DNA from: a virus
Lineage: Duplodnaviria; Caudoviricetes
Virus record (IMG/VR): IMGVR_UViG_3300020049_013434
Coordinates: 1 to 64,000 of that record
Direction: 5' to 3' (one strand)
Length of the DNA: 64,000 nt
Part shown: positions 10,330 to 54,381 of the stretch, piece by piece
Layout: each line of letters begins with the position of its first letter
Position numbering within the stretch: position 1 is the stretch's first letter
Made by a program: the position numbers and the translations under genes
The notes under the pieces: model-generated
Told to the model about the DNA's origin: nothing
The model's database searches: none
The model's input: the letters and a program-made list of their open reading frames with translations, nothing else

Positions 10330-10367
10330 AATTCCCTATTGACACTGAGTTTCAATCGTGATACAAT
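10330..10367 (+). promoter_or_regulatory. sigma70-type promoter
   Basis: AATTCCCTA-TTGACA(10339-10344)-17 nt-TACAAT(10362-10367), extended TG. Confidence 0.8.
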
Positions 10368-10408
10368 CCCACTTGTCAGTCAATTGTCTGCAAAAGAAGG
10401 GATATGTT

Positions 10409-10687
10409 ATGGCGTCAAAGAGACTCAGCTTTCGTCTACAGGAAGAATCTGAGGAGATTGCTACCTGGGAAAAGCTGAAGAAGAAGCACCCGAACAAGAA
10501 GGATCAACAGATATTCAACGAGCTCCTTCGACGTGAGGCGATACGGATAGACAACAAGGAGACGCATTCTGACATACTGAGGAGGGTAGAGGAAAAAGTG
10601 GAGGACGTTGGCATGATAAGAGAAGTACGAGAAGGTATACGACTGTTGATTCAACATGTTTCAGCGGGAGGATCTAATGACAGCTAA
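10409..10687 (+). CDS. ribbon-helix-helix-like small regulator
   Basis: N-terminal KRLSFRL strand followed by helices; ATG 10409 lies downstream of the promoter. Confidence 0.45.
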   Translation: MASKRLSFRLQEESEEIATWEKLKKKHPNKKDQQIFNELLRREAIRIDNKETHSDILRRVEEKVEDVGMIREVREGIRLLIQHVSAGGSNDS

Positions 10688-11033
10688 ACCAATGCACCAA
10701 CGAGGTGCCGGCGCAGACGAGCCAACCTGGGCAGAGAGAATGGAAGCCGAAAAGCAGGAGTTGATTGCCGACAAATTCTTCCTTAGAGGACTGGAAGGCA
10801 TGAGCGAGACGGAAATCGAAATGTTTTTCGACGAGTTCATGAAGCGTCGCGTTGTGCCGAAGAAGAGCGTATCGATACCGGAAGCCCGTCGAAAGATTTT
10901 TGACGACGTAATGGCTGAGCCGACCTGGGTGGAGAGCAACTCACTGCTGGCACAACAGGACATGCGCGAACGCTGTGCCAATGCCGCCGTCGGAGCCTTC
11001 GACAAGTTCGTCGCTGATCTTCCCGTTACTTAG
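10677..11033 (+). CDS. hypothetical protein
   Basis: RBS GGGAGG. Confidence 0.55.
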   Translation: MTAKPMHQRGAGADEPTWAERMEAEKQELIADKFFLRGLEGMSETEIEMFFDEFMKRRVVPKKSVSIPEARRKIFDDVMAEPTWVESNSLLAQQDMRERCANAAVGAFDKFVADLPVT

Positions 11034-11048
11034 AACGAGTCTAAAACT

Positions 11049-11942
11049 ATGAGTAAAGTTATCTACGCTTTAGCACTATTGGTTTCCCTGCTGCCTGGGC
11101 ACGTACAAGCCCAGAGCCGTTGGCGGGAAATGGGAATCACGTCGCCCGAAATGGCAGCGTGGTTCCAGAAGAATGCCGGACCCCAAGATATCGCACGGGT
11201 CGATCACCCGAACGACATTGGGCTGATTGCCGGCATTACAGTCGGACGCAAAATGATTATCTTCAAGACCGTCAGCCAGATCAAGTCGTTCCTCGCCAGC
11301 AACCCCAATGGCTTGGACATTATCGGCTACAACCTAGAGGCTGGGCAGACCAACGACCCGAACGAGCTGGCTGACCCAGTGGGCGCTGCAAAGGCTGTAC
11401 GAGCCGTAGCGCAGCAGTACGGCAAGCTCGTGGCTATTGGTCTTACTAAGAGCCTGACGAATCAATACGGGCCAGATATGGCGCCCTACGCGCATATCTG
11501 GATACTTCAGGTCCAGAAGGCGCAGAACAACCCGTCCGAAGTTGTAGCTTGGGTCAAGCCCATGAGCGCCAAGTTGAAGGCTGCCAACCCGAACCTGGAG
11601 ATTGGGGTGCAGATTCGTACCGACAGTGAGTCGCAAGTCTTGGGTGGGTTGGTTGCACAAATGCCGTGGCTGGAAGGGGTGTCGATTCTAACTCAGCGCA
11701 GTGACGTTCAGCCAGCGATCAGCGTTGCCTCAGTATTTTTTGGCAAACCTGTGGTAGCGGGTGCGGCGCAGGCAGTGGCGGGAAGCCCGCAGGTTGCCGC
11801 AGCGCCCATGGCAGCCATGAGTTATCGAGTCGAGTTCGCGCCTGGCGCCGTTGACGGCATGCTGGGGCTGTTGTTTCTGTGTTGCTGTTATTGGATATAC
11901 ACATTCTTTGACGACGAGGAGGAGCCCAATGGATCTCGTTAA
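11049..11942 (+). CDS. secreted, C-terminally anchored protein (possible TIM-barrel/glycosidase-like domain)
   Basis: signal peptide (VQA|QS), alternating beta/alpha core, Ala-rich linker, C-terminal TM. Confidence 0.6.
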   Translation: MSKVIYALALLVSLLPGHVQAQSRWREMGITSPEMAAWFQKNAGPQDIARVDHPNDIGLIAGITVGRKMIIFKTVSQIKSFLASNPNGLDIIGYNLEAGQTNDPNELADPVGAAKAVRAVAQQYGKLVAIGLTKSLTNQYGPDMAPYAHIWILQVQKAQNNPSEVVAWVKPMSAKLKAANPNLEIGVQIRTDSESQVLGGLVAQMPWLEGVSILTQRSDVQPAISVASVFFGKPVVAGAAQAVAGSPQVAAAPMAAMSYRVEFAPGAVDGMLGLLFLCCCYWIYTFFDDEEEPNGSR

Positions 11943-12933
11943 CTACAAGCGGTTGGTTGAAGACCGCGTTGAAACCATAGCAATTACGGCGCGCGGGTAC
12001 AGCCCAATCGCTATGCCGATTATTTCCGGTATCGGGCTCGTCTTCGCCTTTTACGACGGCGGCAGTCGGGTTCTGATTGGAACTGGGGTCAACAGTATAA
12101 TCGCCACGATCATTGCAACGGTTGCCGGAGTCGTTGTTACCGTGCTGATCGAGGGAATGACGATCGCAACCATGTTCACGGAAGACGAGACGCGCCAGGT
12201 CCCCGACTACGAAAAGGACAAGGTACTAAGCAAGGCGCCGAGCAACAAGCAAGGCATGTTCTTCGCCACACTCGCCTCAATCTTTATGCTGGAATCTGGT
12301 CCGGCGCTATGGTCACTGTGGGAAGGCTCAGTATCACCAGAGCTTGCAATCTTTCGTATTGGGCTGATTGTATTCCCATTTTTCAGTCGGATCGCCGCCT
12401 CTACGTTCAGCATTAATCAACTGCTTAACGTGGCTCTGCGCGAGAAAAGAGCAGAGAATGCTATCCATGAAGTCGAGCTTTCGGTCAAAATTGATACTGC
12501 CCGTCGCAAGCAAATGTTGCTGTCTGAGATTGACATTGCCGGCGCCGTCGACGAAAAGCGCGCCCGTGTCCATGCTAAGCTTGCTAAGCTAGGCGCAAAC
12601 AATGCGCCGCTCATGCTCACAGAAACTGTAACGAAGAGTGAAAACGAGGGTGTAAACGGAAGTGTAAACGAAGTGGAAACGGGTGGAAAGTCCGACGAGG
12701 AAATTATGCTTCTGATCGCGGAAGCACTCGTGGAGGAGCCGTCAATTTCCACTCGCAAGCTGGGTGGAAAGTTAGGCGTCAGCCATACGAAGGTTGGACA
12801 GCTAATTGCACAGCTTGTGGAAAGCGAAGTGTTTAGTGTTTCTAGCGGAGGAAAGGGGAAGCCAAATTCATATACGCCCAACGGGCGCTTCGACGAATAC
12901 ATGGCGGCGTCGCAATTGGTAGTGAGAGACTGA
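11929..12933 (+). CDS. multi-TM membrane protein with coiled coil and C-terminal winged HTH (SpdB/DUF2637-like architecture)
   Basis: about 4 hydrophobic helices; C-terminal EEPSISTRKLGGKLGVSHTKVGQLIAQL wHTH. Confidence 0.6.
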   Translation: MDLVNYKRLVEDRVETIAITARGYSPIAMPIISGIGLVFAFYDGGSRVLIGTGVNSIIATIIATVAGVVVTVLIEGMTIATMFTEDETRQVPDYEKDKVLSKAPSNKQGMFFATLASIFMLESGPALWSLWEGSVSPELAIFRIGLIVFPFFSRIAASTFSINQLLNVALREKRAENAIHEVELSVKIDTARRKQMLLSEIDIAGAVDEKRARVHAKLAKLGANNAPLMLTETVTKSENEGVNGSVNEVETGGKSDEEIMLLIAEALVEEPSISTRKLGGKLGVSHTKVGQLIAQLVESEVFSVSSGGKGKPNSYTPNGRFDEYMAASQLVVRD

Positions 12934-12961
12934 TTGCGATTGCCAGGATTGTTGATACTCT

Positions 12962-13035
12962 GTGTCAAAATTGGACAAAGTGTCAAAAACTGACATAAAT
13001 TGGGTATTGACACCGAGTATCAGAAATGGTACTAT
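12962..13035 (+). promoter_or_regulatory. promoter with tandem TGTCA-N5-TGACA operator-like sites
   Basis: TGTCAAAATTGGACA (12963-12977) and TGTCAAAAACTGACA (12981-12995); TTGACA(13007-13012)-17 nt-TACTAT(13030-13035). Confidence 0.65.
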
Positions 13036-13045
13036 GGTGAAGGGA

Positions 13046-13849
13046 ATGATTAAGGCTTTACTTCTGGACTGTGACTACACAGTCTGGGACCGTAAGACTG
13101 AGGAAGTGTACGACGCAGCAAAACAGCGATTGCATTCTTTGCCGAGCTATGTGAGAGTAGCCTTTTGTACGAATCAGACTTCAGTGGGCTCCCGCTACTG
13201 GATGAAGAAGGGGGGCTTTGGTGACCCGACAAAGCTCAAGGGCGAGAAGGCAATACGGAACCTTTACAATCGAATAGTGCAAGAAGAATTAGAGTTACGT
13301 GACGCCCCCATTTACATGGCATTCCGCAAGCAGGGCAAGGGCGGGACTTGGGGACCAGCCGAGAGCGACGCTCCCGAATGGGACAAGGACTGGGTGAAGC
13401 CTGGCGGCGGTATGTTGCTACAAGCCATGAAGGACCTGGGCGTCACACGAGAAGAAGTCGTATACATTGGCGACGACAGCGACGAAGAGCGGCCCGACAG
13501 CGGGGCAGCCAAGGCGGCAGGGGTGAAGTTCTACAAAGCGCCGGCAATCTGGGGCGACGAGAGCTTCTGGAAAGGCTTCGGCTTTACCCAGCAGACTCTG
13601 ATCGAAGCGCCGGCACTGACAGAGAAAGACCTGTCAGCTTTCATGGAGAACAATGGGAAGCTAAGTCACGCCGAGATCATGGCGAACCTCAATCGCATAG
13701 CTGCCGACCCGCTGAAGAATCTCCCCGACACACTGCCGACCTACGGCGGTCGTGAAGGGGCACAACGAGCCGCCGCACTGGCAATCGCCAACAGTCCACG
13801 GTCCTCTGCTCAGCCGGAAGTGAAGAAGAAGAGAGGAAAGAGACGCTAA
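13046..13849 (+). CDS. HAD-IIIA family phosphatase (polynucleotide 3'-phosphatase/GmhB-like)
   Basis: DCDYT, CTNQ, KPGGGML, YIGDD; extra C-terminal domain. Confidence 0.75.
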   Translation: MIKALLLDCDYTVWDRKTEEVYDAAKQRLHSLPSYVRVAFCTNQTSVGSRYWMKKGGFGDPTKLKGEKAIRNLYNRIVQEELELRDAPIYMAFRKQGKGGTWGPAESDAPEWDKDWVKPGGGMLLQAMKDLGVTREEVVYIGDDSDEERPDSGAAKAAGVKFYKAPAIWGDESFWKGFGFTQQTLIEAPALTEKDLSAFMENNGKLSHAEIMANLNRIAADPLKNLPDTLPTYGGREGAQRAAALAIANSPRSSAQPEVKKKRGKRR

Positions 13850-14370
13850 TGTGGACAATACTTAAGCATATCAGAGGACTAATCGCATTCGGATTCCTGC
13901 TGGTAGCGCTGTTCGGAGCTGGTTTTCTTGGTGGAAACATTCTAAACCCGAAGCCGCCTGAGTCAGTAGCGACAGTGCAGCCGAGACCGCTGGTCACACC
14001 GGCGACACCAGCCCCAGCAGTGGTTATGACAGCGACGAGATTGGCGACAACGACCACTGCGCTACAGCCTGGCAACCCGATTCGTGTGAACTTCTCTACG
14101 GGGAGCTACGGCGCTAATCGCTCAGGGCAACTCGCAGGAACGACCGACACCTATGCGCTGTGGGCTAAGGGTGGGCAGGTTATGAAGCTGGCGCTGACGG
14201 TGGACGGCGGGTCTGCTCAACTGGCACTACAGCGCATGGACAACGGCTCGTTTGCCTGGAAGGACTTAGGTCCGACGAGCGGAGTGACGACGACGTTGCC
14301 GGCGAATGGAGACTATCTGGTACACGTTTATGGGCGAGCACGATACCAAGTCGCCTTTGAGATTAAGTAG
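13849..14370 (+). CDS. membrane-anchored protein with PPC-like beta-sandwich
   Basis: N-terminal TM, P/T/A linker, DTYAL..KGGQVM...LPANGDYLVHV. Confidence 0.6.
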   Translation: MWTILKHIRGLIAFGFLLVALFGAGFLGGNILNPKPPESVATVQPRPLVTPATPAPAVVMTATRLATTTTALQPGNPIRVNFSTGSYGANRSGQLAGTTDTYALWAKGGQVMKLALTVDGGSAQLALQRMDNGSFAWKDLGPTSGVTTTLPANGDYLVHVYGRARYQVAFEIK

Positions 14371-14379
14371 GAGGAAAGA

Positions 14380-14667
14380 ATGATAGACGGAAGCTTTCTT
14401 AGGGTTTCAGTAGTTCTAGGAATTCTATCCATTTGTTTCGGCTGGGTGAGCTACGGCGACATAGTCAGATTCGACAGAGACAGCTACCTCCTTGGTCTCA
14501 TGATGGGAGCCGGAGCATTCTTCTGGATCATGTTTTTCGCAGGATCGATAGTCTATCTACGGGACAAACGCGAGCGAAATCAACGGGCAATGGAGGATAG
14601 AATCGTCAACCGGGTGAAGTTGATTGTTAACCCTCCCCCCTTCCCTACTTCGCTCCGTGAAAAATAA
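14380..14667 (+). CDS. 2-TM membrane protein
   Basis: two hydrophobic helices; RBS GGAGG. Confidence 0.65.
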   Translation: MIDGSFLRVSVVLGILSICFGWVSYGDIVRFDRDSYLLGLMMGAGAFFWIMFFAGSIVYLRDKRERNQRAMEDRIVNRVKLIVNPPPFPTSLREK

Positions 14668-14693
14668 AAGTGTAGGGAATTACACGAGCATTA

Positions 14694-14725
14694 GTTAATT
14701 ATCAACCCAGTAGTTGATAATTAAC
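14694..14725. repeat. perfect 13-bp inverted repeat
   Basis: GTTAATTATCAAC-ccagta-GTTGATAATTAAC. Confidence 0.85.
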
Positions 14726-14745
14726 CCACTGTTTTTGAGGTCAAA

Positions 14746-15105
14746 ATGGAGAAAAATGTAGCGCAAGAAGGAGAAAGAAGACGACGATCTTCAGTACTTA
14801 GGGCACTCGATTCGACACTGCGTCACGCTTATGAAATTGGCGACGTGATAGCAGGGGGCTGGTCGTTCTCACGACGTGAAATGTGGGACAAAATGTCGGA
14901 CTACGAATGGCGCCGGGCGCGCGGCATGTTGATACACGTTGGCATTCTGGATAAGTACGGGGAGCCAGTCATTTGCGACCCGGTTGAGATCGGCGAGCTA
15001 TTGCTTGCGGAGTACAACGATCAGTCGGACGCAATAAAGAATGGCAGAACGCCGCCCTACCTTGTGCGCAAAGACTACAACAAGAAGAGGAGAAGTATTT
15101 CATGA
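14746..15105 (+). CDS. hypothetical protein
   Basis: 119 aa; RBS GAGG. Confidence 0.6.
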   Translation: MEKNVAQEGERRRRSSVLRALDSTLRHAYEIGDVIAGGWSFSRREMWDKMSDYEWRRARGMLIHVGILDKYGEPVICDPVEIGELLLAEYNDQSDAIKNGRTPPYLVRKDYNKKRRSIS

Positions 15106-16406
15106 AGCGCTTAATCGCCCTCATTGTTCTACTGGCAGTATTCGTGCCAATGCCGGCCCACGCCGAAGAGGGCGATTATGGCAGCCGGTTGTTATCGAAG
15201 GACGGCAAGTGGTTGCTGCCCGTCGCTACTCGGATCAACGGCAGTGACGAGGCTAAGCACGTTGGTCGTGGCAGTGTGTTGGCTTGGGACCTGGTGGCTC
15301 CGCTCAACACGCCCGTCTACGCCATGGGACCCGGCAAGGTTGAGTATGCCGGCTGCGACAACAAAGGAGGCTATGGCTGCTGGCTCTTTATCAACCACGG
15401 AGCATTCAAGGCAGTCTACGGTCACATGGTGAAGGGTTCGATTCCGGTTAAGAGTGGTCAAATGGTTGACGTACAGACCGTGATTGGAAAGGTTGGAATG
15501 ACCGGCATGACCAGCTTCGGACCCCACACTCACTTGGAAATGCAGAAGCCGGGCGGCGGTCGTTTCCGTATCGACGACTTCTTTGACCGCAGCGGTATGC
15601 GCTTCTGCAACCTGTGCAGCGTGAGTGGGGAGCCGGCAGTATGGGCAGGGGCGACAAGAGCTGGTGGCGAGCCTGCCAAGGCGCCACAGCCACAAGTCCA
15701 AGCTCAGCCGCAGGTTGTTTATTCAGCCAACAGCAATCTACAAGTCGTTGGCTTACTGTTCGTGATTCTACTCTTCCTGTTCCTGGTCTGGTTCTTTAGC
15801 GGAAATACTTCGACAGTGCGCGACGCAGCAGTCACAATAGCAGTTGTCACCTTGCCCCTATGGGCGCCAATCTGGTTCATGGCAGCGGGCTCAGCGACGG
15901 CAGCGCCCGTACAGGCAGCGGCCGCACCCAGAACAACCGAGTCAGTCACCGCGGCGCCGGCAGGGGCTTGGGAGTATGCCTACAAGTTTGCGAGCAAGTG
16001 GGAAGGTGAGAAGTGTACCGAGGACGGCGCTCATACGTATGCCGGTGTCACGCAGGGCGCCTGGAACAAGTTTACAAAGCGCCACGGCTTACCGCAGAGC
16101 GACGTGTGTGCAGCGCTGCCTGACTCAAAGGTGCGAGGGTTAATCTTCTACGAGGACTACTGGCTCAAGAGTGGCGCCGACAAATTGCCAACCCTCGTAG
16201 CCATTGCCCACAGCGACTTTGCTTACAACGTGGGTGCAGGCGAAAAGGGTGCCGCCATGAAGACCCTGGCGAAGTGCGGCACGGACGTCGTCTGTTATAT
16301 CAAGGAGCGCTTGCGCTGGTATCAACAGGAGTGTGGAAACTGTAGCGCGGGGCATATCAATCGTACTAAGGACCTGGTCACATATCTGAATAGTTTAATC
16401 AAGTAG
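15102..16406 (+). CDS. secreted M23 peptidase + 2 TM + GH108-like lysozyme fusion
   Basis: signal peptide; M23 motifs H..WDL, YGHM, GPHTHLE; two TMs; KWEG..TYAGVT..YW..DFAYNVG. Confidence 0.75.
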   Translation: MKRLIALIVLLAVFVPMPAHAEEGDYGSRLLSKDGKWLLPVATRINGSDEAKHVGRGSVLAWDLVAPLNTPVYAMGPGKVEYAGCDNKGGYGCWLFINHGAFKAVYGHMVKGSIPVKSGQMVDVQTVIGKVGMTGMTSFGPHTHLEMQKPGGGRFRIDDFFDRSGMRFCNLCSVSGEPAVWAGATRAGGEPAKAPQPQVQAQPQVVYSANSNLQVVGLLFVILLFLFLVWFFSGNTSTVRDAAVTIAVVTLPLWAPIWFMAAGSATAAPVQAAAAPRTTESVTAAPAGAWEYAYKFASKWEGEKCTEDGAHTYAGVTQGAWNKFTKRHGLPQSDVCAALPDSKVRGLIFYEDYWLKSGADKLPTLVAIAHSDFAYNVGAGEKGAAMKTLAKCGTDVVCYIKERLRWYQQECGNCSAGHINRTKDLVTYLNSLIK

Positions 16407-16416
16407 GAGAAACAAC

Positions 16417-17316
16417 ATGGAGATCTTTACCATTGTCGCCCGCTGGGTGGCAGTCAATAAGGAATTTACGGTAGCGCTGGTGCTGTGTGGCATTCTCATG
16501 AAGACGGCCTGGAAGCTGCGCCACAAACACTGGAAGGAGCTACTGCGGGAGGGCGCCACGTTCGTCGGTGTTGCTATCGCACTGCAATTCGGTATCTTCG
16601 CCCTGTTAAACGGCATGGTCCCTTCGATTATGGCAAATGTGCAATCGAGCGTCGTGACCCAAGGCGCTTCGCAGGTTGCCGGCAACACATTATCGGCTGG
16701 CGGCGCTATCCTGGACACCTTGGTCAGTGGCGGCAGCGGTGCTGTACCGCAGATTGAACTCGGCGATATCAATGTGCCGGCAGGAACACAGGGTAATCTG
16801 GTTGACAACATCATGGGCGTCCTGGAGTCCGGCAAGTCAACGGCAACCAATGCAGTGGAGCGCTTGACTCAGCCACAAGCGCCGGTTCAGAATAATGCGC
16901 AAGCGCCCGTGAATGCGGCGCCCGCAGTGCCGGTCACGAACCCGCAGCCAAAGCCCGCTGGCTGGGAAGCGCCTGCTTCAGGTCCAACTCAGGACCTCTG
17001 GCGACCAGATCCGAAGCCAGTACAGCAAGCAGCGCCAGTGGTTCAGCCGCAGCCACAACAGCAGGCAGCCCCTGCCTACGACTTAATGCAGCCGAATTTC
17101 TGGAAGAACAACTTCGGTGACGGCGACGGCGAGAATAAGCCTGGTAGTGGCGGTCCTACTGTACACACCGTGGTCAGTGGTGATAGTATGGGTAAGATTG
17201 CCAAGCAGTATGGTGTACCGGTCAACCAACTGTGCAAGCTCAATTATGAAGTAGTCAAGCAGAATTGCAATCTGTTGCGCAGCGGTATGGTGCTGACCAT
17301 TCCCGCAGTTAACTAA
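16417..17316 (+). CDS. membrane protein with C-terminal LysM
   Basis: 2 N-terminal TMs, P/Q/A linker, HTVVSGDSMGKIAKQYGV...LRSGMVLTIP. Confidence 0.8.
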   Translation: MEIFTIVARWVAVNKEFTVALVLCGILMKTAWKLRHKHWKELLREGATFVGVAIALQFGIFALLNGMVPSIMANVQSSVVTQGASQVAGNTLSAGGAILDTLVSGGSGAVPQIELGDINVPAGTQGNLVDNIMGVLESGKSTATNAVERLTQPQAPVQNNAQAPVNAAPAVPVTNPQPKPAGWEAPASGPTQDLWRPDPKPVQQAAPVVQPQPQQQAAPAYDLMQPNFWKNNFGDGDGENKPGSGGPTVHTVVSGDSMGKIAKQYGVPVNQLCKLNYEVVKQNCNLLRSGMVLTIPAVN

Positions 17317-17333
17317 GGAGAAAAGGATACGTC

Positions 17334-17681
17334 ATGAAGAATGCTACGATTCAAGCTAAGATTGTGTTTGCTGTTGGTTTACTAGGACTCCTGATCAGCC
17401 TGAACAGCCTGCGCTTGCCGGCGCAGAGCCCGACGCCCGTTGCCACGCTGACCGAGGATCAGAAGTGGGACGCCTTCTACATGCTGCGGGGGCAGGGCAC
17501 CTGGGCTGACTACGGGCTTATCGTTGCTCCCGGAGACAACCCGCAGAAGGTTCTAATCGACAGCACGCTCGACATGTACCCGACTTCGAGCCAGAAGGAT
17601 AGAATGCGCGCTCAAGACGTGGCGCAGCCAATGTTTAACCTCATGGCGCCAAACTTCTGGGCTCAGTTCGAGACGAAGTAG
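17334..17681 (+). CDS. membrane-anchored or secreted small protein
   Basis: N-terminal hydrophobic helix; RBS AAGGAG/AAGGA. Confidence 0.65.
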   Translation: MKNATIQAKIVFAVGLLGLLISLNSLRLPAQSPTPVATLTEDQKWDAFYMLRGQGTWADYGLIVAPGDNPQKVLIDSTLDMYPTSSQKDRMRAQDVAQPMFNLMAPNFWAQFETK

Positions 17682-17689
17682 GAGGGCGT

Positions 17690-18265
17690 ATGGAGAACTC
17701 AGAAGTCTTCTCAAGCCTGCTTGCACTGCTCTTGATCGTGTGGATATTCAATTGGATATTCGCCGACGACGACGGTGGACGCAGTGGCGGCGGACAAAGA
17801 CCTGGTGGACCAAGTGGACCGAGCGGCGGCAATCGTGGCGGCGGACAAAGACCTGGTGGACCAAGTGGACCGAGCGGCGGCAATCGTGGCAGTGGCGGCG
17901 GTATGCCAAGCCCAAGCTCCTTTAGTGGTGGTGGCTCTAAGCCCGCCGCCATGGACATGTCGGAGCTTGGTGGCAAGCCTTCGTTTGGCGGAAGAGAGAG
18001 TAGTGCCCGTCCTGAACCAAAGAAGCCACAAAGTGAGCCTGGCGAGTTGCCCGGTTTCCTTATGATTCCGCTGGGGATCATGGGCGCCCTGTTTCGCTGG
18101 GCGACTAAGCCACGGGGTAAGAAAGCACCAGTTACACCAAAGGCACCTGACAAGGCATGGGTGAGCAAGGAGGCGACGGAGCGACCGCGAGTTGGTGAGC
18201 GACCGCCGCCACCTCGCCCAACGAGACCAGCGGTAGTGAGTGAGGATAAGGAGGGAGAGGAGTAA
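17690..18265 (+). CDS. Gly/Pro-rich membrane protein
   Basis: N-terminal TM, GGGQRPGGPSGPSGGNR twice, second hydrophobic segment. Confidence 0.65.
   Translation: MENSEVFSSLLALLLIVWIFNWIFADDDGGRSGGGQRPGGPSGPSGGNRGGGQRPGGPSGPSGGNRGSGGGMPSPSSFSGGGSKPAAMDMSELGGKPSFGGRESSARPEPKKPQSEPGELPGFLMIPLGIMGALFRWATKPRGKKAPVTPKAPDKAWVSKEATERPRVGERPPPPRPTRPAVVSEDKEGEE
17784..17890 (+). repeat. 51-bp tandem duplication (2 copies plus 5 nt)
   Basis: identical units start at 17784 and 17835. Confidence 0.9.
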
Positions 18266-18429
18266 TGCCCACGGGAGCATGGTACATGACCGTTAGCTTT
18301 GTAGCGAGTCTGCTATTTCTGTCCCTCGGCATACCGCTCAAATCAAAATGGCTCGTGTACCTAGCCCTGTGGTGCTTCGGTACGTTTTTCGTCTTTTTGA
18401 TTATCGGTATAGTGAGCGACTTTATCTAA
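18265..18429 (+). CDS. 54-aa 2-TM protein (not in the ORF track)
   Basis: TAATG coupling, RBS GGAG; MPTGAWYMTVSFVASLLFLSLG...WLVYLALWCFGTFFVFLIIGIV. Confidence 0.6.
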   Translation: MPTGAWYMTVSFVASLLFLSLGIPLKSKWLVYLALWCFGTFFVFLIIGIVSDFI

Positions 18430-18440
18430 GGAGAAATGCA

Positions 18441-18755
18441 ATGAGCACTATGAATCCATGGAAGCAAGGACTGTTGGGTCGAGTACGTGAGGCAACTGAT
18501 CAAACGAACGAGCAGATTGCGGGGAAAATTGGCGTGTCGCGCATTACGATTCAGCGCTGGCTGTGCGACGACGGTGTAGCTGACGATACTGCCCTGCGCA
18601 TTATGCTATATCTTTCTGGTAACGATCGGGTTATGAGCAACAAGGATAAAATGGAAGCAATTCTCGCAATCGACGGTATCTTGCGAGCGCTTACTGAGGA
18701 TAATGAAACACGCTTCGCCTTCACAAAATTAGTTGAAGTCATGGCGACGAAGTAA
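18441..18755 (+). CDS. XRE-type HTH regulator
   Basis: TNEQIAGKIGVSRITIQRWL; RBS AAGGAG. Confidence 0.65.
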   Translation: MSTMNPWKQGLLGRVREATDQTNEQIAGKIGVSRITIQRWLCDDGVADDTALRIMLYLSGNDRVMSNKDKMEAILAIDGILRALTEDNETRFAFTKLVEVMATK

Positions 18756-38962: not shown

Positions 38963-40344
38963 TAAAACGCCCCCGTCGATACCATGCCGCCTGGCATCAT
39001 ATTCTTAATCTCAAGCGCCTTGCGGAAGGCGTCTACCTCACCCCGTCGTGTGCCGAATGGATTATCTGCCAGTTTCAACGTCAGGAAGTAAGACCCCTCG
39101 TTGCGGTTCGAGTAGTTCATGGTCGCCTGCAGCTCAGCAAAGCGGTCGGTGGTGCGGTCGCAGGTGCACTGGCAGACCGCCTTTGGTAGCCGTGCCGCCG
39201 CCAGCAATGCCACAATCTGCTCAGTCTCACTGCTATCAAAGCAGGTGCTGTCGCAACCGAAATCGCTGGTATAGCCGTGCCAGTAGTAAAGCTTAACAAA
39301 GTCCGGGTCGCGACTACAGGCTTGGCAATTGCCGTCCGTACACCACTGCTCTTCCTCTGCGTTCCATGTGCCACGCACTGCCTGCACAGCGCCTTTGACG
39401 CCGTAAGTATTGCCGACGACGCAGCCAGGGCAATAGCTCAACTGGCAAATGTCACAGGAGCCGCAGGAGCAACCTGGGTTGCCACGCCAGCCAAACTGGG
39501 CTGCGGCTACAGTGCGGTCAAAATAGCGGCGCACCACGACCAGTTCCTCCGGGTAAGTCGCCGGCGAGAGTAGGTCGATAATCGGCGACATGTTGTTGTT
39601 CAGACAGATTCCGCAGTCAGCCGGCTCCTCGTAAAGCTCTGGACGAATGGCTACCCAAGGATCAATCTCAATACTGGCTATGCCGTCCGCAATCTCAATG
39701 CGCGGCGAGTGAATCTTGTAGGCTCGGTCGCAAACGTGACCGACGTGATACACTTCAATCTCGCACTCAAGCACACAGGACTCGACCTCGACTTCAAGCA
39801 AAATGCGCTTCGGGCAGTCCACATTATTCTTGCTCGTATACAGGTCGCCGTTGCGATCGTAGATTTGCACCGGTACTGTGCCGAGCTCGGCGACCGACTG
39901 GCGACCCCAGGCTAAGACCGGCTCGTCATTGATCACGTAGAGCCCATTAGCCCTTCTTGTCTCAGCCCGTACTCGGCTACTGCTAGACGATGGCAGCTCG
40001 CCAAGATAAATGCTGCCGTAGGCGTAGTCACGGGCTGGTCCACAGCCACCGTTATAGGGCAGGATAACGCACTTCTCTTGCGGGTAGATCGGTATGCCCC
40101 AGAAGGCTGCCAAGTCACGCTCGGCTTCGGCGATCGCATTCGCCAGGTCATCGCGCGTAACGACAGACGAACCGGCTTGGTGTGGACCTTGATACCAAAA
40201 CTCATTGCAGCCAGTCATGCAGCCATAGTGGCAGACGGGCTCGAAGGTGGCGCCGTTGAAGGCTACTGGGTTGAGTCCAAAGATCTCGGCAAACCTATCG
40301 AGATCTAATACTTTTGACTTTTTCGAGAAACGACTCCAGGCCAT
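38962..40344 (-). CDS. Cys-rich head-tail adaptor-like protein
   Basis: ATG 40344 with GGAGG; DDLANAIAEAE helix and VKLYYWHGY resemble adaptors; 25 Cys. Confidence 0.5.
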   Translation of the reverse strand: MAWSRFSKKSKVLDLDRFAEIFGLNPVAFNGATFEPVCHYGCMTGCNEFWYQGPHQAGSSVVTRDDLANAIAEAERDLAAFWGIPIYPQEKCVILPYNGGCGPARDYAYGSIYLGELPSSSSSRVRAETRRANGLYVINDEPVLAWGRQSVAELGTVPVQIYDRNGDLYTSKNNVDCPKRILLEVEVESCVLECEIEVYHVGHVCDRAYKIHSPRIEIADGIASIEIDPWVAIRPELYEEPADCGICLNNNMSPIIDLLSPATYPEELVVVRRYFDRTVAAAQFGWRGNPGCSCGSCDICQLSYCPGCVVGNTYGVKGAVQAVRGTWNAEEEQWCTDGNCQACSRDPDFVKLYYWHGYTSDFGCDSTCFDSSETEQIVALLAAARLPKAVCQCTCDRTTDRFAELQATMNYSNRNEGSYFLTLKLADNPFGTRRGEVDAFRKALEIKNMMPGGMVSTGAF

Positions 40345-40711
40345 CCAGGACCTCCACCAAATTGAGCATGAACGTGTACACGCCATAAGCCGCAAAGAAC
40401 TCGGCAACGGTATAGAGAGAGAAGCTGCGCGCCGTCAGCAGGACGGCAATAATATTCGTCCAGATACCCGTGCAGTACATGCACAGGAGCATGAGACCAA
40501 CCTCGGTCGTCGCCACATATTTAGGTATCTCTTCGGGCGGCGTATCAGTCATCGCAATGTAGCGATTCAGTTGCTCGCCCGTTGCCGTATCGCTAGGCAA
40601 AATGCCGGCTAGCTCGCGAATCCGTTCAAGCAGGCGATAGGGTCCGCGCTCGTTAACCAGCAAATGCGCAATGGCATAAGCGACTAGGGCTCGTAGTAAG
40701 ATCATCGCCAT
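40295..40711 (-). CDS. DUF1360-like membrane protein
   Basis: LLVNERGP..LERIR, LLCMYCTGIW; next to the lysin. Confidence 0.6.
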   Translation of the reverse strand: MAMILLRALVAYAIAHLLVNERGPYRLLERIRELAGILPSDTATGEQLNRYIAMTDTPPEEIPKYVATTEVGLMLLCMYCTGIWTNIIAVLLTARSFSLYTVAEFFAAYGVYTFMLNLVEVLDGLESFLEKVKSIRSR

Positions 40712-41346
40712 AACAATGCCTGCCTTTGCACTCTGTCTACCCTGGACATCCATGACACGCCGTAGCGCGCATAGTTTGACAGGGTGCGGTAAAAATAGCG
40801 GCGCCATTCATTGTAGGCGTCGAAGGTGCCGGTCACGCTCGACGCCAGTAGCGCCGTGCCAACACCGGCATTGACCGCAAAGTCGAACACGGTCAGGTTG
40901 AGCGGAAAAGGCAGCATGGCTGCCCCACTTGGCACCCAATAGCTATCGTGATAAATCTTGCGCATGCGCTCCATGGTGAGCTGAGAGACACGCACGTAGG
41001 GGTGCGCCTTTTGGCTAATGCCCCACAGTGTGACGCCGCCCGGATCATGTTGGTCAGTCGATAGCCCACCCTCTTCGCGCAGAACAAAGCGCAGGCAGCG
41101 ACCAAAATCACCTTCGACAAGTCGGTCAATTAGAATGGTCCGATTCGCCGATTGCTCGGCTATCCAGCCGGTGCGCCCGTTGCGGACCTGCCACCAGATT
41201 AATCCAGCGCGCTCAATGGGACCGCCTGTAATAACGAGCTTCGTGTCGAAGTCAAGCGTCTCAAGCCATGTACCGTTCGGCTCGCGTCGGAGTTTAGTCG
41301 GCGTGACCACGACCACAGAATCACCTACCAAAAGTTCTGTCTTCAT
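40702..41346 (-). CDS. endolysin: SH3-like domain + glycosyl hydrolase 108
   Basis: WWQVR..TGWIAE; EEGG..HDPGGVTLWGI; FDFAVNAG. Confidence 0.85.
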   Translation of the reverse strand: MKTELLVGDSVVVVTPTKLRREPNGTWLETLDFDTKLVITGGPIERAGLIWWQVRNGRTGWIAEQSANRTILIDRLVEGDFGRCLRFVLREEGGLSTDQHDPGGVTLWGISQKAHPYVRVSQLTMERMRKIYHDSYWVPSGAAMLPFPLNLTVFDFAVNAGVGTALLASSVTGTFDAYNEWRRYFYRTLSNYARYGVSWMSRVDRVQRQALLWR

Positions 41347-41406
41347 AGAATCTTCCCCAATGGTCGCCGATCATTAATCGGACGTGATCGGCGACCATTG
41401 GCAATG

Positions 41407-41814
41407 TTAGTTCTTTTTAACTTCGACCGACTGCCCACCCGTCAGGCTGACCGGCTGATTGGTCAGGAAGCGCAGGAAAATGTTCAGTACGCCAGACACC
41501 CAGGCGATATGAGCCGGGTTGACGCCCAGCACGTCGTAGCTGGTAAGGGCAAGGACGGCGAGCGTGATTGTGATCGCGTTGATCCAGAACGTTCTGCTAG
41601 CCGCAATACTCTTAGTCCCTACAGTCGTTGCCTCTTCGATCATTTCTTCCTCCCGATTTCTAATGCTATCCCACTCGGAATACCGCTCGTTTGCTGGCAG
41701 TGTGCCACTGATTCGATCTGCCCGTGCCCCTAGTCGACAGGCTGACCAGTAGAGCACGAAGATGAGTGCGCTTACAATGCCCCAGAGCTTCAGAATCCAC
41801 CACAGCGTATCCAT
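41407..41814 (-). CDS. holin (possible second start at 41643)
   Basis: KSIAASRTFWIN...NIFLRFLTNQPV holin motif; upstream of the endolysin. Confidence 0.7.
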   Translation of the reverse strand: MDTLWWILKLWGIVSALIFVLYWSACRLGARADRISGTLPANERYSEWDSIRNREEEMIEEATTVGTKSIAASRTFWINAITITLAVLALTSYDVLGVNPAHIAWVSGVLNIFLRFLTNQPVSLTGGQSVEVKKN

Positions 41815-53547: not shown

Positions 53548-54381
53548 TTACCCCGTCCGAATGTCTGTGTACTCGTCCACTTGTGGCACCTCTTTGACCG
53601 CCTGCGCATAGGCTCGTCTTGGGTCGCCGTGTTCGTTCATACGGCGCCAGAAGGCGTAGGTGAAGTCGGCGGCGTCCTGCGTGTCAATGTCCTCCTTGAC
53701 GAAGACAACGCAAGCCAGCCCAGCCAGCTCATCGGCGACAGCAGAGGTCTGACAGGCAGCCAGGAAGATCACATCAACGCCGGTCACGTTCTCATTCCAC
53801 CAAGCCGGCTCTGCAATGCCGTCGACCAGGTGAACGCCTTCCTTGTTCGCGTGGGAGGAGACGTGCATCCACTTGTACATATTGTTGTCCTGGCGATGCC
53901 TGCGCAGCTCAGATACAATCTCTGCCTTCGTGGCGTTGACAGTACGCTTGAAACGCACGTTGGCACGGCGTAGCGCTCTTCGATCGAGCTCACACATGGC
54001 GGTGTCGCCACAGACGACGAGCAGGTCGTTACCGGAGGCTGATTCCTCCATGAGCCTGAGCGACGGACTATTCATACTCTTCTCAGCAATCACCTTCTCC
54101 AGATCGCGCACGCGAATGCCCTTGTTTTGTAGCTCTTCGATCAAAAAAGTTACCCTGCCCTCAAGGGCATGGATACGCTCGTCGTCGGCGCGCTTAATAC
54201 TCTCGTAGCGCTCTCTTTGCTCATCCATATCTTGCTTGAGCTCGGCGATCTTTTGCTCATGCACAAGCGACTGTTCGGACTCGCCGATACGATGACCGAG
54301 GCGGCTTTCGAGCCAGCGCAGCAAGGAAAAGCTTGCAACGACAATTGCGATTACAGTGACAACATCACTATTTAGGACCAT
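53548..54381 (-). CDS. membrane-anchored coiled-coil protein with CHAT (caspase-like) domain
   Basis: N-terminal TM, coiled coil, WMHVSSHA (His), IFLAACQT (Cys), AADFTYAFW. Confidence 0.7.
   Translation of the reverse strand: MVLNSDVVTVIAIVVASFSLLRWLESRLGHRIGESEQSLVHEQKIAELKQDMDEQRERYESIKRADDERIHALEGRVTFLIEELQNKGIRVRDLEKVIAEKSMNSPSLRLMEESASGNDLLVVCGDTAMCELDRRALRRANVRFKRTVNATKAEIVSELRRHRQDNNMYKWMHVSSHANKEGVHLVDGIAEPAWWNENVTGVDVIFLAACQTSAVADELAGLACVVFVKEDIDTQDAADFTYAFWRRMNEHGDPRRAYAQAVKEVPQVDEYTDIRTG

Follow-up and report, generated by a model that had tools for sequence, protein, structure and literature searches.

A candidate wall-breaching gene module on the replication arm of a tailed phage, with relatives linked to FtsK in elements of filamentous Chloroflexota

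Transfer of double-stranded DNA (dsDNA) driven by FtsK/TraB proteins is regarded as peculiar to mycelial actinomycetes. Among the accessory Spd proteins, SpdB2 of Streptomyces has four transmembrane (TM) segments and binds both DNA and peptidoglycan. Two-domain hydrolases are known from Gram-positive conjugation (e.g., CwlT of ICEBs1, PrgK of pCF10 and TraG of pIP501); these are membrane-anchored or exported, combine glycan- and peptide-cutting domains, and are thought to open the wall locally. Spd-like proteins are also found in actinophages, where a possible role in spreading phage DNA has been proposed for them (Thoma et al. 2015, PMC4447253). Described here is a gene cluster at positions 11049-18429 (plus strand) of a tailed phage (Duplodnaviria; Caudoviricetes), within a window of 64,000 nucleotides that forms the first 64 kb of the 94,450-bp IMG/VR record IMGVR_UViG_3300020049_013434, a record with direct terminal repeats. 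The cluster is tentatively explained, at somewhat less than even likelihood, as a conjugation-type, membrane-tethered and peptidoglycan-breaching module that would serve cell-to-cell passage and whose DNA pump appears to have been lost in this phage.

The conserved hydrolase-LysM pair and its FtsK neighbor

The conserved core of the cluster consists of (i) an anchored TIM-barrel enzyme, (ii) an exported PPC-like protein, (iii) a hydrolase with peptidase M23 and glycoside hydrolase 108 (GH108) domains and (iv) a protein with two TM segments and a LysM domain (2TM-LysM). TM segments and anchors, here and below, are called from hydropathy.

11049-11942, plus strand: exported TIM-barrel enzyme with a signal peptide ending AQA-QS and a C-terminal hydrophobic anchor
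13849-14370, plus strand: PPC-like beta-sandwich with an N-terminal TM anchor (phrog_2177, E 1.6e-6; Pfam PPC, E 0.017, below the cut-off)
15102-16406, plus strand: hydrolase of 434 amino acids (aa), arranged as signal peptide, M23, TM hairpin (residues 205-223 and 242-260) and GH108 (Pfam)
16417-17316, plus strand: 2TM-LysM protein of 299 aa with a Pro/Gln-rich linker and a C-terminal LysM domain (Pfam, 43.6 bits against a cut-off of 20.9, E 2.9e-11)

Related loci were examined in 16 distinct genomic contexts (labeled L001, L002, G001 and so on), 15 of which extend far enough to judge whether an FtsK neighbor is present. The 2TM-LysM gene lies directly downstream of the hydrolase gene in all 16, and a gene for an FtsK_SpoIIIE protein of 451-611 aa is found directly 3' of the LysM gene in nine of the 15 (L002, L004, L005, L008/G001, L050, L051, L055, L057 and L058). 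Five of the FtsK contexts carry an integrase, three of them together with a primase/helicase.

L051 (8506-17366): tRNA-Val, integrase, HTH_17 excisionase-like gene, hydrolase, LysM, FtsK, Prim-Pol/PriCT_2 and D5-type helicase
L002 (8816-18412): integrase, hydrolase, LysM, FtsK and Prim-Pol/AAA_25
L057 (287-9175): integrase, hydrolase, LysM, FtsK, D5_N and primase; found on 17 contigs
L055:5503-11345 and L058:6190-13482: integrase upstream of hydrolase-LysM-FtsK, with a partial set of integration and replication genes

L002, L051 and L057 are compact elements that are flanked by host genes and are without virion or lysis genes, and in which the hydrolase-LysM-FtsK trio represents the sole candidate transfer genes. 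Judged by gene content, these elements look like actinomycete integrative conjugative elements (AICEs). No description of such Int-(Xis)-hydrolase-LysM-FtsK-primase/helicase elements in Chloroflexota was found in the literature searched, and no att-type direct repeats of at least 12 nt matching the integrase-proximal flank were found around L051 and L002. L002 also contains three copies of a ~70-nt repeat between the FtsK and Prim-Pol genes (L002:14148-14383) and a run of 9-nt iterons (ATGATAGGA-like) directly after Prim-Pol (L002:16986-17400); these repeats may represent a transfer-recognition site and an origin of replication. The FtsK proteins of the relatives are nearer to FtsK DNA-motor structures than to type VII secretion ATPases, as exemplified by the FtsK of L057, which has its best matches among the DNA-motor structures (2IUU, E 2.6e-13).

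The same triad is encoded by phages. G001 is a 40.8-kb IMG/VR genome with a large terminase, tail proteins and the hydrolase-LysM-FtsK triad; thus, a genuine tailed phage carries the triad, which is also present in the phage-like contigs L004, L005 and L050. The hydrolase-LysM pair resides beside replication/early genes in five phage contexts and in none of them within a lysis cassette. The tailed phage L008/G001 and the mini integrative element L051, both triad-bearing, stem from the same metagenome (3300010349).

The hydrolase scores well above the Pfam cut-offs for both of its catalytic domains (Peptidase_M23, 64.4 bits vs 28.7; Glyco_hydro_108, 36.7 bits vs 21.2). In a 33-sequence alignment, the M23 residues D63, H108, H142 and H144 are invariant; the first His is missing from its canonical -4 position, and an invariant H53 sits 10 residues upstream instead. 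The GH108 domain has an invariant E301-G302, of which E301 is the catalytic Glu of an EGG-type motif. Both catalytic domains are predicted to lie outside the membrane. Cysteine pairs are conserved among the hydrolase homologs, as are Cys273 and Cys284 in the alignment of the LysM protein, and these pairs fit an extracytoplasmic location. The catalytic residues are all retained across this phage, L001 and L049, which are only 46-64% identical. A complex prediction for the hydrolase TM hairpin and the N-terminal part of the LysM protein gave a score of 0.00 with controls not run, which is evidence neither way. A role of the hydrolase as a virion-associated lysin was considered and rejected on account of its signal peptide and TM hairpin.

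The hydrolase architecture is rare. Among 5.8 billion proteins, 41 full-length M23-GH108 homologs were identified, all from metagenomes or metagenome-assembled genomes (MAGs). The expectation of the initial annotation that the cluster would be restricted to phages and elements of filamentous hosts agrees with a survey of 50,697 GenBank phage records, in which no full-length relative of the hydrolase, the TIM-barrel protein or the winged helix-turn-helix (wHTH) protein of the cluster was detected and no protein covers more than 28% of the hydrolase; partial M23 matches occur in lysin A of Gordonia and Rhodococcus phages. Single-protein IMG/VR scans with the hydrolase and with the TIM-barrel protein returned no relatives, and the weak NCBIfam matches of the module to DipM all score far under the family cut-offs. 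In the gammaproteobacterial MAG contigs L043-L045, a DnaB-like gene adjoins a protein of 814-853 aa, whose internal M23 domain shares 37-41% identity with the phage M23 but is set in a different architecture.

The TIM-barrel enzyme encoded at 11049 is predicted to be GH18-like and belongs to an uncharacterized family of 224 representatives with no Pfam match or model. Its AF2 model (pLDDT 87.6) forms an eight-stranded barrel over residues 21-238, for which SleL, a cortex-lytic GH18 enzyme, is the top VIA match (Z 16.4), in a tie with further GH18 proteins (chitinases) and metabolic barrels; Foldseek against the PDB gave generic barrels only. At the site of the GH18 DxxDxDxE motif, the protein reads LDIIGYNLE, in which E97 is nearly invariant and both inner Asp residues are replaced. 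In relatives, the TIM-barrel domain is fused to the N-terminus of the hydrolase (L005, 664 aa), split (L004) or encoded by a separate gene (L050); the fusion in L005 ties gene 11049 functionally to gene 15102. PPC-like homologs are located upstream of the hydrolase in L001, L049, L004 and L005, and a matching motif is present in L056.

A counterpart of the pair is encoded on the chromosome of the likely hosts. When genome contigs were scanned with a profile built from an alignment smaller than the 33-sequence set, relatives were detected almost exclusively in Caldilineaceae/Caldilineales MAGs. The Caldilineaceae chromosomal triad (L026-L039, e.g., L030:9980-13693) is composed of a signal peptide-M23-2TM-TIM barrel protein (~555 aa), a 2TM-LysM protein (~343 aa) and a conserved 263-aa protein with no family match, and is found in varying chromosomal surroundings; it may be an unstudied septal or wall-remodeling system. 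Between host and phage, the M23 halves share 46% identity (hhalign E 5e-77). A TIM barrel with a DGIAIDME motif is modeled for the C-terminal domain of the host protein, with GH18 chitinases among the tied best matches; profile comparison detected no sequence similarity between this domain and the phage TIM-barrel protein, although the models of both are TIM barrels. The host gene, which is single-copy, is present in 15 of 151 genomes of the order but in only one of 401 genomes sampled across the phylum. All 15 genomes are large (4.7-14.9 Mb, most >6.5 Mb), and the host flank of the mini-element L002 is nearest (67-80% identity) to those same genomes. By these comparisons, the hydrolase-LysM pair is a mobile version of the single-copy Caldilineaceae pair, from which its M23 half is derived, with GH108 carried in place of the C-terminal TIM-barrel domain of the host protein. 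The filamentous Chloroflexota host assigned by the initial annotation is thereby narrowed to Caldilineaceae; Caldilineae are described as multicellular filaments common in activated sludge (PMC6753630).

The initial annotation had noted no FtsK/TraB translocase in the window, which is confirmed here and extended to the whole 94,450-bp record. In the maximum-likelihood tree of the hydrolase, the mobile proteins form one clade apart from the host genes (100/100), with the topology ((L004,L005) FtsK+, (L050 FtsK+, (L049,(this phage,L001)) FtsK-)) and supports of 87/82 (L004, L005), 93/90 (L050) and 100/99. The FtsK-bearing neighbor lineages (L004, L005 and L050) also share TIM-barrel and/or PPC-like genes with this phage. 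Because this phage, L001 and L049 are nested within FtsK-bearing lineages, the simplest reading, which the tree suggests, is that the translocase was lost in the lineage of this phage while the wall-active genes were kept.

Genomic setting and the remaining genes

The plus-strand (replication) arm of the phage runs from ~70 kb across the record ends to 18.7 kb and includes genes for ParB-like, MarR, PriCT_2 primase, DnaB and AAA_25 proteins. The minus-strand virion genes (e.g., Sipho_Gp37, a 2,568-aa tape measure protein and tail-tube paralogs) converge on this arm at ~19 kb. The cluster is the distal end of the replication-strand operon, downstream of DnaB. It contains 12 tightly packed open reading frames (ORFs), nine of which encode exported or membrane proteins by signal peptide/TM prediction, as the initial annotation had proposed; the others are the HAD phosphatase, a basic 119-aa protein and an HTH protein that overlaps the end of the region. 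With a strict hydropathy cut-off, membrane proteins account for seven of 10 cluster ORFs compared to 28 of 143 genome ORFs (hypergeometric P = 4e-4). Beyond the core, the features of the region are as follows.

10339-10367, plus strand: predicted near-consensus sigma-70-type promoter, TTGACA-17-TACAAT with TG (11 of 12 positions match; consensus match only)
11929-12933, plus strand: protein with ~4 TM segments, a coiled coil and a C-terminal wHTH (weak Pfam HTH match, E 0.01-0.04); variable accessory gene
12962-13849, plus strand: cytoplasmic HAD-IIIA-type phosphatase (Pfam HAD_2, E 2.5e-5; NCBIfam HAD-SF-IIIA)
14380-14667, plus strand: variable 95-aa peptide with 2 TM segments; 14386-14632 is skipped in one contig variant
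14694-14725, plus strand: AT-rich perfect hairpin with a 13-bp stem, then T-rich sequence, between the 2-TM gene and the 119-aa gene
14746-15105, plus strand: basic soluble protein of 119 aa, the stop codon of which overlaps the hydrolase start (ATGA)
17334-17681, plus strand: small protein of 115 aa with an N-terminal anchor
17690-18265, plus strand: TM protein with a Gly/Pro-rich stretch and no relatives in the examined loci
18265-18429, plus strand: 2-TM peptide of 54 aa with a homolog in L001

The predicted promoter precedes the gene run 10358-18755, while a 24-bp element repeated ahead of virion genes is found solely at 45.9, 50.1 and 54.9 kb and is absent from the module. The hairpin is a possible internal terminator or attenuator and may mark a division of the cluster into two units of transcription. 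The gene for the Gly/Pro-rich TM protein contains a perfect 51-bp tandem repeat (2.1 copies, 17784-17890).

Conservation of these genes is uneven. The HAD phosphatase is conserved in the syntenic phages L001 and L049; the 119-aa protein, with no family match in Pfam, PHROG or NCBIfam, has homologs at the same position in L001 and L049 only; and partial homologs of the 115-aa protein follow LysM in the same two phages. By contrast, no conservation beyond the nearest relative is seen for the Gly/Pro-rich protein, either of the 2-TM peptides or the multi-TM + wHTH gene. Conservation therefore covers only part of the cluster, the four-part core, with the pair in 16 of 16 contexts; among the nine membrane genes, only four to five are conserved. 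In the multi-TM + wHTH protein, residues 254-334 match MarR-type wHTH domains by an Atlas model, and its only link to Spd is an Atlas feature score of 0.76 to a cluster with SpdB_N in 29% of its members. The gene is without a relative in the syntenic phages (BLASTP detected no similarity to the protein at the same position in L001), and a wastewater contig skips it (11922-12910).

Sequence of this phage is present in wastewater runs of 11 studies, and in two metatranscriptome and two other wastewater runs the fragments cover both genome arms. The contigs of one wastewater run join across window positions 11922-12910, 14386-14632 and 14688-15096, such that strain variants appear to exist in which the wHTH membrane, 95-aa 2-TM and 119-aa genes are missing or replaced and the hydrolase and LysM genes are kept. 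Outside the cluster, CHAT-like protease genes are noted in the window (53548-54381) and likewise in L005:12563-13393, L006:15644-16429 and L004:21199-21461; they are thus shared among several distantly related phage-like contigs that bear the hydrolase-LysM pair. An IS605-type TnpB gene (OrfB_IS605 and a Cas12f1-like TNB domain) resides on the early arm of the phage beyond the window (L054:7610-8740, which is 91610-92740 of the record), and TnpB genes are also found in L004.

The phage has a conventional lysis set elsewhere, a GH108 endolysin between two 2-TM proteins, as the initial annotation had placed it at 40.3-41.8 kb.

40702-41346, minus strand: soluble GH108 endolysin without a signal peptide (70.1 bits), within the virion arm
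41407-41814 and 40295-40807, minus strand: 2-TM proteins that flank the endolysin, part of the lysis set 40295-41814

The GH108 domains of the endolysin and the tethered hydrolase are only 31% identical, and an origin of the latter as a recent duplicate of the phage's own endolysin is rejected on this basis. Membership of the hydrolase in a holin-endolysin cassette is similarly rejected: besides a cleavable signal peptide, it has a TM hairpin, its gene is located on the replication arm, and it occurs in integrative elements without virion genes.

Wall opening for DNA passage and the competing explanations

By topology and the conserved cysteine pairs, the TIM barrel, the LysM domain and both hydrolase domains are placed outside the membrane in tethered form and, therefore, the enzymes would cut only the wall beside the producing cell. 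Elements that do not lyse their host use the same pair, in most cases together with a dsDNA pump; thus, it is read as a local wall-opening device for the passage of DNA. In the relatives, the pair would open the wall and DNA would be pumped into the neighboring cell, analogous to TraB and Spd in Streptomyces and to the two-domain hydrolases of Gram-positive conjugation. In the lineage of this phage, the pump would have been lost with the wall-opening part left intact. The module would be transcribed with the replication arm, ahead of the late genes, and its products would cut peptide cross-links and glycan strands only beside the infected cell's own membrane, most plausibly at filament septa. 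Such local cutting could let phage DNA or particles reach adjacent cells, with the host FtsK as one candidate DNA mover in place of a phage pump. Cell-to-cell spread by this phage is an inference drawn from the wall-opening device.

Several points weigh against this explanation. FtsK (PF01580), HerA (DUF87) and VirB4-type (AAA_10) ATPases were not detected in the whole 94,450-bp record or in the stretches of L001 and L049 examined; tblastn with the FtsK proteins of five relatives found nothing in the record at E<=0.1, and tblastn with the integrases of the elements found nothing in the phage genome. The phage thus supplies no translocase of these families for the DNA-moving step. The loss of FtsK assumes that gene neighborhoods track the hydrolase tree, two forks of which have only moderate support. 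FtsK is missing from six of the 15 contexts, and the pair therefore clearly has an FtsK-independent role. FtsK-like genes also occur in phages of the unicellular Bacillus and Mycobacterium and, thus, FtsK alone is no sign of filament spread. The RNA-library contigs cover both arms alike and are uninformative on timing and expression level, and unrestricted activity of the hydrolase would simply lyse the cell. The Streptomyces-like spread of the initial annotation is, therefore, only partly supported: the comparison adds the pair followed by FtsK in nine of 15 contexts and the AICE-like elements, but the translocase that gives the relatives their meaning is absent here.

Of the alternatives, an accessory role in lysis or release is unlikely yet survives best. 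Tethered hydrolases may weaken the lateral wall (or else a sheath or secondary polymer) in advance or open it locally, which would allow the holin-endolysin set to free the virions from a thick-walled filament, and this would accommodate the three wall-active catalytic domains and LysM of the module, the several small 2-TM peptides that could act in a holin-like manner, and a position at the distal end of a long operon that could be reached late. However, the same pair is found in integrase/primase elements without virion or lysis genes and is linked to FtsK in nine of 15 contexts; it is always among early/DNA-metabolism genes and never in a lysis cassette; the hydrolase does not depend on a holin, having a Sec signal of its own; and the small TM peptides are not conserved.

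It is quite unlikely that the phage copy mimics the host pair, i.e., that it overrides or takes the place of the chromosomal M23-TIM barrel/LysM system, for which splitting of septa or separation of cells is the probable role, and so causes filament fragmentation or altered division. The M23 domains are close homologs, both proteins of the host pair share the architecture of the phage proteins, the host gene is single-copy within one clade, and GH18-matching TIM barrels are modeled for the C-terminal domain of the host protein and for phage gene 11049 alike. Nonetheless, the putative role of the host pair is itself only presumed, the mobile versions form a separate clade (100/100) with the C-terminal domain swapped for GH108, and the FtsK linkage is left unexplained.

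That the cluster is a neutral or decaying leftover of a transfer module captured earlier, without a function here, is considered improbable: the absence of the FtsK gene and the variation of flanking accessory genes between strains would be expected of a remnant, but the core genes are intact with catalytic residues kept across phages of 46-64% identity, and at least three separate phage groups have versions without FtsK. Very unlikely as well is the alternative named by the initial annotation, superinfection or entry exclusion, in which membrane and wall-binding proteins alter the envelope against other phages or conjugative elements. In its favor, exclusion genes typically form clusters of small membrane proteins on the early arm, and conjugative elements also encode entry exclusion. 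Against it, two or three catalytically intact hydrolase domains are unexpected, the nine module proteins have no PADLOC defense-model match at E<=0.01, and it is the enzymes rather than the small membrane proteins that are conserved.

The wall-opening explanation can be extended to a broader and more doubtful proposal, in which tailed phages of filamentous Caldilineaceae carry a conjugation-type apparatus that moves replicating genomes through septa without an extracellular virion stage, and the same module drives unrecognized TraB-like conjugative elements outside Actinomycetota. The apparatus would combine the tethered M23-GH108 hydrolase and the TIM-barrel glycosidase with the LysM anchor and, for many lineages, with an FtsK pump. 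Should the module indeed move DNA across septa, it would offer a concrete way to test phage spread inside a filament without exit and would change the view of infection dynamics, burst size and host range among the filamentous Chloroflexota that give activated-sludge flocs their structure. Without spread, the pair and its counterpart on the host chromosome would still point to an unstudied wall-remodeling system of Caldilineaceae.

Comparison with known systems

The module shares catalytic folds with M23/GH108 and SAR/signal-peptide endolysins of phages. The hydrolase differs from these in that it is permanently TM-tethered, encoded on the replication arm and also found in non-lytic integrative elements. 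The LytM/LysM division factors (DipM, NlpD and EnvC) are similar in the use of M23 and LysM to act on peptidoglycan from outside the membrane; here, M23 and LysM are instead on two separate membrane proteins, and most M23 metal/catalytic residues are kept, whereas several of the division factors are degenerate. In function, the chromosomal pair of the host may be of this class.

The hydrolases of Gram-positive conjugation resemble the phage protein in joining glycan and peptide cutting within a membrane-anchored or exported protein of a DNA-transfer module. The families differ (NlpC/P60, CHAP, SLT and muramidase compared to M23 and GH108 here), the VirB4/VirD4 type IV secretion partner is absent here, and it is unusual for an internal TM hairpin to separate the two domains. 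The module is, thus, not a sequence member of this group or of the TraB/Spd systems.

The dsDNA conjugation of Streptomyces and other actinomycetes (TraB and Spd; AICEs such as pSAM2; plasmid pSVH1) is matched by the relatives in the single FtsK/SpoIIIE ATPase beside peptidoglycan-binding membrane proteins; by the compact elements in the integrase, optional excisionase, primase-type replicase and transfer genes of AICEs; and by the host in being a multicellular filament. The FtsK translocase of such a module is present in nine related elements, with the integration and replication genes in L002, L051 and L057 and partly in L055 and L058. This phage, by contrast, is without a translocase and has a 94-kb tailed-phage genome rather than that of a small integrative element. 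The phylum, Chloroflexota, is also different, and the accessory proteins (M23, GH108, TIM barrel and LysM) are likened to Spd by function, not by sequence. FtsK/TraB dsDNA transfer logic, in the form of a pump and wall-binding membrane proteins on small integrase/primase elements, may extend to a second multicellular filamentous phylum; new compared to the actinomycete case are accessory proteins that are true wall hydrolases and a module that is shared with tailed phages.

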